From assembly GCA_043811375.1 (NCBI GenBank), contig JBDRNJ010000006.1, positions 54,296 through 118,295 on the forward strand: 64,000 nucleotides of DNA, given 5' to 3'. This DNA is from a bacterium (lineage in GTDB: Bacteria; Zixibacteria; MSB-5A5; GN15; FEB-12). Position numbers and translations under genes: made by a program. The notes under the pieces are model-generated. The model searched no databases. It had not been told where the DNA came from and worked only from the letters and a program-made list of their open reading frames with translations. Of this stretch, positions 6,999 through 8,227 are shown one piece after another (position 1 is the stretch's first letter; the number at the start of each line of letters is the position of its first letter).

Positions 6999-7027
6999 TT
7001 GACATAGGTTTTGTGGACATATTAAAT
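6999..7027 (+). promoter_or_regulatory. Sigma70-type promoter upstream of leader peptide / AsnRS-like gene
   Basis: TTGACA (6999-7004), 17 nt spacer, TTAAAT (7022-7027), with an AT-rich upstream tract. Confidence 0.55.
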
Positions 7028-7042
7028 ACAATTTTCAAAGAC

Positions 7043-7129
7043 ATGTTAATCATAATTTTAGGCATAGTACTACTATTGCTTTCAGACGCCAAACTGCTGG
7101 CCATAGAGGGAGCGGCGGTTGTCGTCTAA
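7043..7129 (+). CDS. Putative attenuator leader peptide MLIIILGIVLLLLSDAKLLAIEGAAVVV
   Basis: 28-codon ORF, 17 of 28 residues Ile/Leu/Val, many rare A-ending codons, lying between a promoter and a terminator. Confidence 0.6.
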   Translation: MLIIILGIVLLLLSDAKLLAIEGAAVVV

Positions 7130-7175
7130 ATTCACGAGGACTGGGGATAAAACCCCGCACGGTTTTGGCATTTGT

Positions 7176-7209
7176 GGCCACCCGGTATTGATCGGGTGGC
7201 CTTTTTTTT
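7176..7209 (+). terminator. Intrinsic terminator (attenuator) in the 5' leader
   Basis: GGCCACCCGGT-ATTG-ATCGGGTGGCC stem followed by T8, 22 nt before the ATG at 7232. Confidence 0.85.
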
Positions 7210-7231
7210 ACCCCAACATGAGGAGAGCGAG

Positions 7232-8227
7232 ATGCGGCATTTAGCGGTTACCAATGGCGAGTTTGTCAGGACCAGTGTCCTGCGTTCGAGGTTACTCAAG
7301 TCTGCCCGCGATTGGTTTGATGAACATTCATTTGTCGAGATTCAGGTACCTCATATTACCGGAGCAACCGGTTCCTGCGAGTGGTTTCCCAACGCCATGC
7401 CGGTCACGATGTTCGATCAGGATGGTGCCGAGACCACCATGTTCCTGCGGCAGACGGGGCAACTCTACCTGGAAGCCTTCACGGTCGCCCATAACCGTGT
7501 CTACACCATTGGACCGTCGTTTCGTCAGGAACGCAAGGTAACCGACCGCCACCTGTGCGAATTCACGCTAATCGAGTTTGAGGCTCGGGACCTTGACCTG
7601 GACAGCCTGATGGATCACATTGAGTCGTTGATCAAAACAATGTTTACCGGTGCACAGGAATTGTATCCCAACGGTTTGCTGTCTAAGTACGCACACCTGC
7701 CGTTTAACCGGATATCGTACGCTGACGCAGTTGCTCTTCTGCAGACGAACGGCCACACGATTGAGCTAGGTGATGATTTCGGAAGTGGCGAAGAAGGAGC
7801 TCTGTGCCGGATGCTTCACGATCTGCCAACTTTTGTGACTCATTACCCCTCCAATCCCAGACCGAAAAAGGGCGGCGTGATAAAGTTCTTCTCCATGAAA
7901 CGCGATAACGGGACCACGCTTTGTTGCGACCTGCTGCTGCCGCACGCCGGGGAATCAGTCGGCGGAGCCGTGCGTGAGGGCTGCACCGGGACCTGCAAGA
8001 AACAGTTTGAGGAATCTTACATGTACGACCACCTGGTGGAACGTGGTGTCGATCCGGCCCAGTTTGAGTGGTATTTTGAGACGCTCCAGCAGGCGGATGG
8101 TCAGTCGACCGGATGTGGGATCGGCTTTGAGCGGGTGGTGCAGTCAATCATGGCGACTGAGCAAGGCCACATGAGTATCAAGACGGCTGTGGAGTTGCCG
8201 CGATCACCGGAGTTCCTGACGCCTTAG
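7232..8227 (+). CDS. Class IIb aaRS paralog, catalytic domain only (AsnRS-like / archaeal-type asparagine synthetase-like)
   Basis: Motif 1 FVEIQVPHIT, LRQTGQLYLE, motif 2 SFRQERKVTDRHLCEFTLIEFE, motif 3 GCGIGFERVV; no N-terminal anticodon-binding OB fold; SD GAGGAG. Confidence 0.8.
   Translation: MRHLAVTNGEFVRTSVLRSRLLKSARDWFDEHSFVEIQVPHITGATGSCEWFPNAMPVTMFDQDGAETTMFLRQTGQLYLEAFTVAHNRVYTIGPSFRQERKVTDRHLCEFTLIEFEARDLDLDSLMDHIESLIKTMFTGAQELYPNGLLSKYAHLPFNRISYADAVALLQTNGHTIELGDDFGSGEEGALCRMLHDLPTFVTHYPSNPRPKKGGVIKFFSMKRDNGTTLCCDLLLPHAGESVGGAVREGCTGTCKKQFEESYMYDHLVERGVDPAQFEWYFETLQQADGQSTGCGIGFERVVQSIMATEQGHMSIKTAVELPRSPEFLTP

Follow-up and report, generated by a model that had tools for sequence, protein, structure and literature searches.

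Overlapping leader ORFs across a terminator, with a probable pyrBI-type UTP response, ahead of a candidate CarAB-replacing AsnRS-like gene in Zixibacteria

De novo pyrimidine synthesis is taken to need, at its entry, carbamoyl phosphate from CarAB or carbamate kinase. Among described leaders, the closest to the one reported here is the Escherichia coli pyrBI attenuator, whose terminator lies inside a leader ORF of 135 bp and stays unrepressed when UTP is normal (PMC4824070, PMC5021804). At pyrBI, carAB, codBA and upp, a run of at least three T at the transcript start gives slippage that depends on UTP, and at pyrC and pyrD pyrimidines 6 to 7 nt past the −10 box give start-site switching (PMC6524683, PMC6245113, PMC7039003). 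Both pyrBI and codBA have G/A-A-TTT-like start signatures (PMC7039003). With the ilv, leu and trp attenuators our locus shares a short uORF and a GC-rich terminator with a U-tail before the gene, but it differs from them in having no conserved control codons or antiterminator, an SD-less uORF, a second ORF across the terminator and no such biosynthetic operon.

The locus lies in a 64,000-nt stretch of DNA (the window) on contig C6 of a source genome of 3.56 Mb that is 95% complete. The attenuator element is flanked by priA and a stand-alone gene of 331 aa at 7232–8227, downstream of which a tRNA-Glu gene lies on the opposite strand. A sequence-only reading of the window had taken the element for a leader-peptide attenuator governed by Ile, Leu and Val (ILV) codons. 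Judging from the analogy with pyrBI and from the genomic context, we think it fairly probable that the leader is a pyrBI-type, UTP-responsive attenuator worked by a relay of two ribosomes on an AsnRS-like enzyme that replaces CarAB. The features, in window coordinates, are these:

6999..7027, forward strand: predicted sigma-70-type promoter (−35 TTGACA 6999–7004, 17-bp spacer, weak −10 TTAAAT 7022–7027)
7032..7042, forward strand: start-site element, a candidate UTP-sensitive start or slippage site (T-run at positions 5–8 past the −10 box, purine run from 7037; start site predicted)
7043..7129, forward strand: uORF1, 28 codons, no SD, AUG 6 nt past the first purine, putative first leg of the relay (27–29 codons in 14 short leaders plus L090)
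7084..7127, forward strand: hairpin covering SD2 and start 2, which are about 0.8 paired in naked RNA
7098..7107, forward strand: 5′ strand of the antiterminator of the sequence-only reading (pairs with 7171–7180), particular to the source genome (p=0.005 here)
7107..7129, forward strand: relay cassette, with SD2 AGGGAG 7107–7112, start 2 TTG 7119–7121 and the uORF1 stop 8 nt after start 2 (cassette in 34/48 leaders)
7119..7244, forward strand: uORF2, 41 codons, SD-led, overlapping the uORF1 stop and running across the terminator; frame and peptide not conserved
7142..7180, forward strand: candidate pause zone, from U content and a weak hairpin (small hairpin 7143–7156, U-rich stretch, 4-bp hairpin overlapping the terminator base)
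7176..7209, forward strand: intrinsic terminator, 11-bp stem and T8 (terminator scan, ortholog conservation)
7232..8227, forward strand: 331-aa AsnRS-like catalytic domain (PF00152 only) without anticodon-binding domain, G[AS]CE family, stand-alone; candidate pyrimidine entry enzyme

The distance from start to terminator, about 135–140 nt, and the T-run at the transcript start are as in pyrBI, and so would be the terminator inside a translated leader ORF, the irrelevance of the peptide and the blocking of the hairpin by close coupling. In contrast to pyrBI with its single pyrL, the leader has a pair of overlapping ORFs, the second with a concealed start; short leaders begin an SD-less first ORF 3–6 nt from the likely 5′ end, with the T-run before the first purine; and the target is not ATCase, a UTP response being the candidate suggested by analogy. 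E. coli and Salmonella pyrC, pyrD, codBA and carAB P1 likewise have pyrimidines 6–8 nt past the −10 box and then a purine, and runs of at least three T, but differ in that our locus has no conserved 5′ hairpin over the ribosome-binding site, carries U rather than C, and has start sites that are predicted. In pyrC the start-site numbering is U6-C7-C8-G9.

We gathered 92 ortholog loci, of which 66 remained after removal of duplicates, partial genes and short flanks; those with names were mostly Zixibacteria, and no conserved gene neighbours were found among the 66. For leader comparison we used the 56 loci with protein identity of at least 60% and enough upstream DNA. Ortholog leaders fell into a short class of about 138 nt and a long class of about 200 nt. 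The gene was also surveyed across 285 genomes of the phylum, first by a single-protein query and then with a wider family profile. In the one metatranscriptome run, 6% of the sampled words were present, with contigs over 7820–7969 and the tRNA only.

The promoter is present upstream of the leader as had been claimed; it was unlisted by a consensus scan, yet its position is kept: when promoters are picked on the −35 and −10 boxes alone, 42 of the 56 ortholog upstream regions have one at the equivalent site. Pyrimidines at positions 6–8 past the −10 box followed by purines were found in 37 of these 42, and T occupied positions 6, 7 and 8 in 39, 38 and 32 of them, compared with a T frequency of 0.28–0.32 per position at 87 promoter-like sites of the source genome. 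Four of the five misses fit the pattern given a 16-bp spacer. In a distant clade of seven loci (49–52% identity), five of the six promoters found begin G/A-A-TTT at positions 7–11, as at pyrBI and codBA (PMC7039003). The sixth promoter of this clade (L084–L091) starts GCCCC. Partners for the 5′ pyrimidines paired above shuffles in 1 of 41 leaders, the only clear local case being L076, and a pyrC-style switch, in which 5′ nucleotides close a hairpin over the translation start, is on this count unsupported. We also rejected a long-range pairing between the 5′ end and the stop-1 region that had been spotted by eye in some leaders, as it exceeded shuffles in 0 of 16 short leaders. In both leader classes, whether or not an AUG is present, the start-site motif is followed, at positions 6–16 after the first purine, by an A/T-rich stretch with ATC at its end (window 7229–7250 and orthologs).

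Short leaders carry an SD-less AUG 3–6 nt after the first purine and an ORF of 27–29 codons, with 3-nt indels in the alignment. Long leaders are mostly without an AUG at this place, and by eye the equivalent ORF begins at an internal SD. Over five close pairs, pN/pS was 0.77 for uORF1 vs 0.08 for the downstream gene; by this sequence measure the uORF1 peptide evolves nearly neutrally and is free in sequence. The window peptide is hydrophobic, as would suit a uORF1 that encodes a small membrane protein in its own right and ends at its own terminator, with the gene served by another promoter. In orthologs, however, the peptide is unconserved and often rich in Arg, only 30 nt separate terminator and gene, and the cassette would go unexplained, so we regard that reading as extremely improbable. 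The upstream regions of L044, L019, L073 and L032 hold apparent three-ORF chains, with a 5′-proximal ORF (31 codons, or just 2) ahead of uORF1 and uORF2.

The sequence-only reading mentioned neither the missing SD of uORF1 nor the second, SD-led ORF. An SD with ATG, GTG or TTG 45–64 nt ahead of the terminator was found in 36 of 48 leaders, in comparison with 8.9 in shuffles. The uORF1 stop lies 8, 11 or 14 nt after start 2 in 34 of the 48 (shuffles 1.05 ± 1.0, maximum 4), the offsets having been chosen after viewing the leaders, with 22 cases at +8 alone. In these 34 leaders start 2 is ATG (22), GTG (6) or TTG (6), and uORF2 stays open through the 5′ arm of the terminator in all 34, compared with 18.1 ± 2.8 (maximum 26) in shuffles and 19 for the third frame. 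The conservation of SD and start codon leads us to infer that uORF2 is translated. It reaches the terminator in all three frames (13, 15 and 6 leaders); since it meets the terminator in any frame and uORF1 is near neutral, the sequence of the leader peptide appears unimportant, as in attenuators of the pyrBI type. Among 58 terminator-before-ORF sites of the source genome, the cassette occurs at +8 only here, with one other at +14. By the test used it is absent from 14 of the 48 leaders, including weak-SD cases (L001, L065), other overlaps (L044, L076) and four close relatives laid out differently.

The leaders of L006, L007, L010 and L068 have a strong 5′ hairpin and a mid-leader hairpin with a T-run, three of them with a decayed U-tail at the usual terminator; we label this group a rewired leader. 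The distant clade has two tandem terminators, both crossed by long leader ORFs. A distant family member, L121:3440–3770 (G284), has by eye a simpler leader, with a pyrimidine run, an AUG 3 nt after the first A and a single ORF that runs through the terminator with no relay.

A terminator scan recovered the terminator at 7176–7209 that the sequence-only reading had named, and one is present in 48 of the 56 ortholog upstream regions and missing from 8. Covariation had been put forward as a check on the stems; among 18 short leaders, 5 of the terminator's 10 pairs show two-sided changes. The antiterminator pairing exceeds shuffles in only 2 of the 48 leaders. The RNAalifold consensus of the 18 short leaders consists of the terminator only. 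The protector hairpin at 7084–7127, also proposed earlier, is found in the centroid fold; in orthologs SD2 pairs with sequence past stop 1 in 22 of 34 (mean z −1.8), whereas the window hides SD2 by the upstream protector instead. The U fraction in the 25 nt ahead of the terminator is 0.37 vs 0.22 in mid-uORF1 over the 34 leaders, a control internal to the leader, and terminator regions are often U-rich anyway. The 4-bp hairpin at the terminator base is weakly above shuffles (13 of 48 leaders at p<0.1). Masking 7152–7182 abolishes the terminator, trivially.

Many leaders have a weak hairpin that overlaps the base of the terminator, and pyrR heads the pyrB–pyrC operon; the two could point to a protein antiterminator, PyrR of the source genome or another, that binds the leader and leaves the uORFs incidental. 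A search of Rfam gave no match for PyrR, T-box or riboswitch leaders at E values up to 10, only tRNA-Glu passing; with a consensus fold of the terminator only and uORF2 open in 34 of 34, we consider protein antitermination highly unlikely.

The conservation among orthologs of the T-run, of uORF1, of SD2 and start 2 under the uORF1 stop, and of uORF2 across the terminator shows that these parts are kept as a set. A real and conserved ribosome-dependent attenuator, the broader claim of the sequence-only reading, is thereby upheld by the cassette (34/48), the open uORF2 (34/34) and the terminator (48/56). In the proposed mechanism, a ribosome ending uORF1 would melt the hairpin over SD2 and reinitiate 8 nt back at start 2. 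If pyrBI is a guide, with plentiful UTP the polymerase would outrun the relay and terminate, and with low UTP it would slow in the U-rich zone while the second ribosome covers the 5′ arm, giving read-through. The T-run may act as a further UTP check, through slippage or the choice of start site, after the examples of pyrC, codBA and pyrBI. The relay so proposed is a variant of pyrBI-type working, outside the ilv/leu class, and not one that we found in print: the literature searched, with subscription papers largely outside it, described neither the enzyme family nor any relay of two uORFs over an intrinsic terminator. Attenuation would then be possible without control codons or an antiterminator, with reinitiation between two uORFs as the timer.

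The same relay might respond not to UTP but to translation capacity in general, as set by growth rate, amino-acid supply or ribosome stress; the T-run would then serve only to fix a scrunched purine start at position 9–10, as at stable-RNA promoters. The relay needs no particular codon, the 5′ pyrimidines are without a pairing partner, and by eye some promoter-like sites ahead of apparent tRNA genes of the source genome have pyrimidines before a purine at position 9. On the other hand, it is T specifically that is kept, the distant clade has starts of the pyrBI/codBA type, and the gene is tied to pyrimidine genes. We regard a translation-capacity sensor as rather unlikely and retain UTP as the favoured signal.

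The 28-codon ORF at 7043–7129 is present as had been described, with 11 ILV among codons 2–13, seven of them A-ending, and the run exceeds composition (11 vs 4.2 expected; 0 of 5000 shuffles reach 11). That the A-ending codons are unusual holds for TTA and CTA (4% and 3% of Leu codons) but less so for ATA (18%) and GTA (15%), as counted in a crude long-ORF set. The 10-bp pairing of 7098–7107 with 7171–7180 exists (−14.3 kcal/mol, p=0.005 vs shuffles), and refolding with a ribosome footprint masked, a check that had been suggested, raised no objection, the antiterminator having a probability of 0.97 with 7064–7091 masked and the RNA end at 7190. As a conserved element the pairing fails, with p<0.05 in 2 of 48 leaders and a median p of 0.52.

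Considered by itself, the source genome suits the ILV model. In its lineage, a stall at Ile, Leu or Val codons could free 7098–7107 and let the antiterminator form, so that limitation for branched-chain amino acids or a rare tRNA induces the gene, as a genome-specific overlay. This would make sense of the 11 of 12 ILV codons and of the pairing, and the relatives show a mild ILV enrichment in codons 2–6 (38 of 65); 13 of 14 leaders, the window's included, have Ile as codon 3. The 95% complete source genome yielded no ilvD, and a classical attenuator with Trp codons stands ahead of its trpE. Neither the run nor the antiterminator is conserved, however: when the orthologs were aligned, 13 related short leaders had 2–7 ILV in codons 2–13, their codons 7–13 stood at the proteome level of 25%, and the closest leader with DNA, L053 (81% protein identity), had 7 of 12 and no antiterminator. 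In addition, the window was picked for its ILV look and the conserved uORF2 would be left unexplained. We judge an overlay of this kind improbable. Under the relay a stall in uORF1 would lower expression, opposite to the logic first proposed, and much of the ILV content would follow from the richness in U and A at the start of uORF1.

As a general account, sensing of Ile, Leu and Val through an antiterminator does not survive the comparison: control codons are not kept (2–7 in 13 relatives, pN/pS 0.77), the pairing occurs in 2 of 48 leaders and most long leaders are without an AUG there. Of the ilv/leu layout only a terminator before the first gene remains, with no conserved control codons or antiterminator. 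No operon for Ile, Leu or Val synthesis at the locus and no tie of the gene to branched-chain amino acids was found, the links being to pyrimidine synthesis. The classical attenuator ahead of trpE (G000 C25:3250–3560) has a leader ORF with YYW and a YWWWYY cluster, and a strong terminator; this trpE leader has an SD-like stretch and Trp/Tyr codons, and uORF1 is without an SD. A lone ilvC lies at G000 C69:38475–39428, with no ilvD found, perhaps for pantothenate synthesis.

The protein encoded at 7232–8227 has PF00152 as its sole domain, is without an N-terminal OB-fold and scores under every NCBIfam cut-off. Its fold is nearest to AsnRS 1x54 (TM 0.77, model pLDDT 79), in class IIb, and the QLYLE, RHLxEF, ExE and GGxxR motifs align with AsnRS, giving a pocket of the AsnRS type. 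The class IIb fold and these motifs are shared with the AsnRS catalytic domain and its anticodon-less offshoots (AS-A/AS-AR, EpmA), from which the protein differs in having no OB-fold, an invariant G[AS]CE loop, a separate tree group and scores below the named-family cut-offs. The invariant loop recurs in a wide family of short proteins including Bathyarchaeia and Aenigmarchaeota. In a quick tree, a branch with SH-aLRT 98 sets 44 G[AS]CE rows apart from full-length synthetases (32), a truncated AsnRS of the ordinary kind and a single AS-A. Identity as an asparagine–tRNA ligase was rejected on the absence of the OB-fold anticodon domain and the score below the family cut-off. The expectation of a job other than charging tRNA-Asn has held, given the missing anticodon domain, a full-length AsnRS encoded elsewhere in the source genome and the ties to pyrimidine genes.

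AS-A likewise consists of a class IIb domain that lacks an anticodon-binding part (PMC9437257). There are weak matches to PRK06462 models as well, and the enzyme could on these grounds be an ammonia-dependent asparagine synthetase of AsnA/AS-AR type, its leader sensing Asn or Asp. Against this, the score is 90 bits vs a cut-off of 368, the pocket reads QLYLE as in AsnRS vs LYKQ in the AS-A compared, AS-A falls outside the family in the tree, the source genome has genes with an Asn_synthase domain, and Asn makes up 1.4% of uORF1 codons across leaders and none in the window's own uORF1. The protein also has no Lys in the Asp pocket, where AS-A carries one. AS-A/AS-AR identity was accordingly dropped, and an Asn- or Asp-sensing leader on such an enzyme seems to us very unlikely.

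The distribution of the gene points to pyrimidine synthesis. By the single-protein query, 60 of the 285 genomes have the gene and 80 have carB, with both in 1 vs 16.8 expected; related orthologs are not independent, and kinship inflates the p value of this exclusion. The single overlap is a partial carB in an assembly that is 8% contaminated. Gene and carB swap inside six genera (g12, g35, g38, g45, g48, g81), and the source genome has pyrR-pyrB-pyrC and no carB. With the wider profile the carB overlap is 2 of 69 among inspected genomes, or 5 of 74 (20.8 expected): G280 has both, and three uninspected genomes may. By the single-protein query 146 of the 285 have neither, and carbamate kinase (267) and pyrB (262) are near-universal, from which it follows that neither the gene nor carB is essential. 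Replacement of pyrB by the gene was dropped on the same count of 262. Loss of carB could also concern arginine.

Of nine distant family members inspected, three lie directly after pyrC, one of them in pyrR-pyrB-pyrC, and one after a pyrD-family gene. In the Bacillus pyr operon, carAB occupy the slot after pyrC. Two of 22 proteins scanned are fusions, P0242 joining the AsnRS-like domain to MGS, DHO_dh and PRTase and P0195 joining it to MGS; they belong to the same tree group as the window protein, yet are about 30% identical to it. The MGS part of a fusion matches the end of CarB in one genome. No longer fused forms were found among 5439 candidates in the alignment A3 search, which is weak evidence. 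No leader of this build was seen upstream of carA in the 17 stretches read of 20, and the 20 held no AsnRS-like gene. Complementary distribution, pyr operon position and fusions together indicate that the enzyme is probably a functional substitute for CarAB, or for CarAB-PyrB-PyrC. The leader is separate evidence for a pyrimidine job, as its pyrBI-like build indicated UTP before the metabolic links were examined.

From this genomic context the enzyme may make dihydroorotate or a precursor, perhaps from asparagine, bicarbonate and ATP. Asparagine would already hold N1, N3 and C4–C6 of dihydroorotate and be without C2 only, so an Asn- and ATP-binding fold could conceivably bring about ring closure by activating a carbamate. 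That the fusion includes neither PyrB nor PyrC speaks for dihydroorotate as the product; the position beside pyrB-pyrC makes carbamoyl phosphate or carbamoyl-aspartate possible also. We tentatively suggest, as a possibility that we rate below even, that across uncultured bacteria and archaea one active site builds dihydroorotate (or carbamoyl-aspartate) from Asn, bicarbonate and ATP without carbamoyl-phosphate synthetase, and that in Zixibacteria it stands under a repressor-free UTP sensor made of a start-site T-run, an SD-less first ORF and termination-reinitiation onto a second ORF crossing the terminator. A synthetase-derived enzyme in place of CarAB would, if real, close a gap that many uncultured genomes have and give the tRNA-synthetase fold a new reaction.

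Some further observations lie to the side of this locus. Among the short AsnRS-like hits, P0241 is interrupted by an intein that has a LAGLIDADG domain. On plasmids, the matches listed (best 20 of 41) were for the most part ordinary asnS. The only GatB-family match, at G000 C64:122900–125050, is below the cut-off, and we take it to look like an archaeal-type GatE in a bacterium. A Streptomyces plasmid cluster (L120:164–3938) holds methylaspartate mutase, asparagine synthetase A, a glutamate-synthase-related protein and MbtH, and looks like a methyl-asparagine supply for a peptide synthetase.
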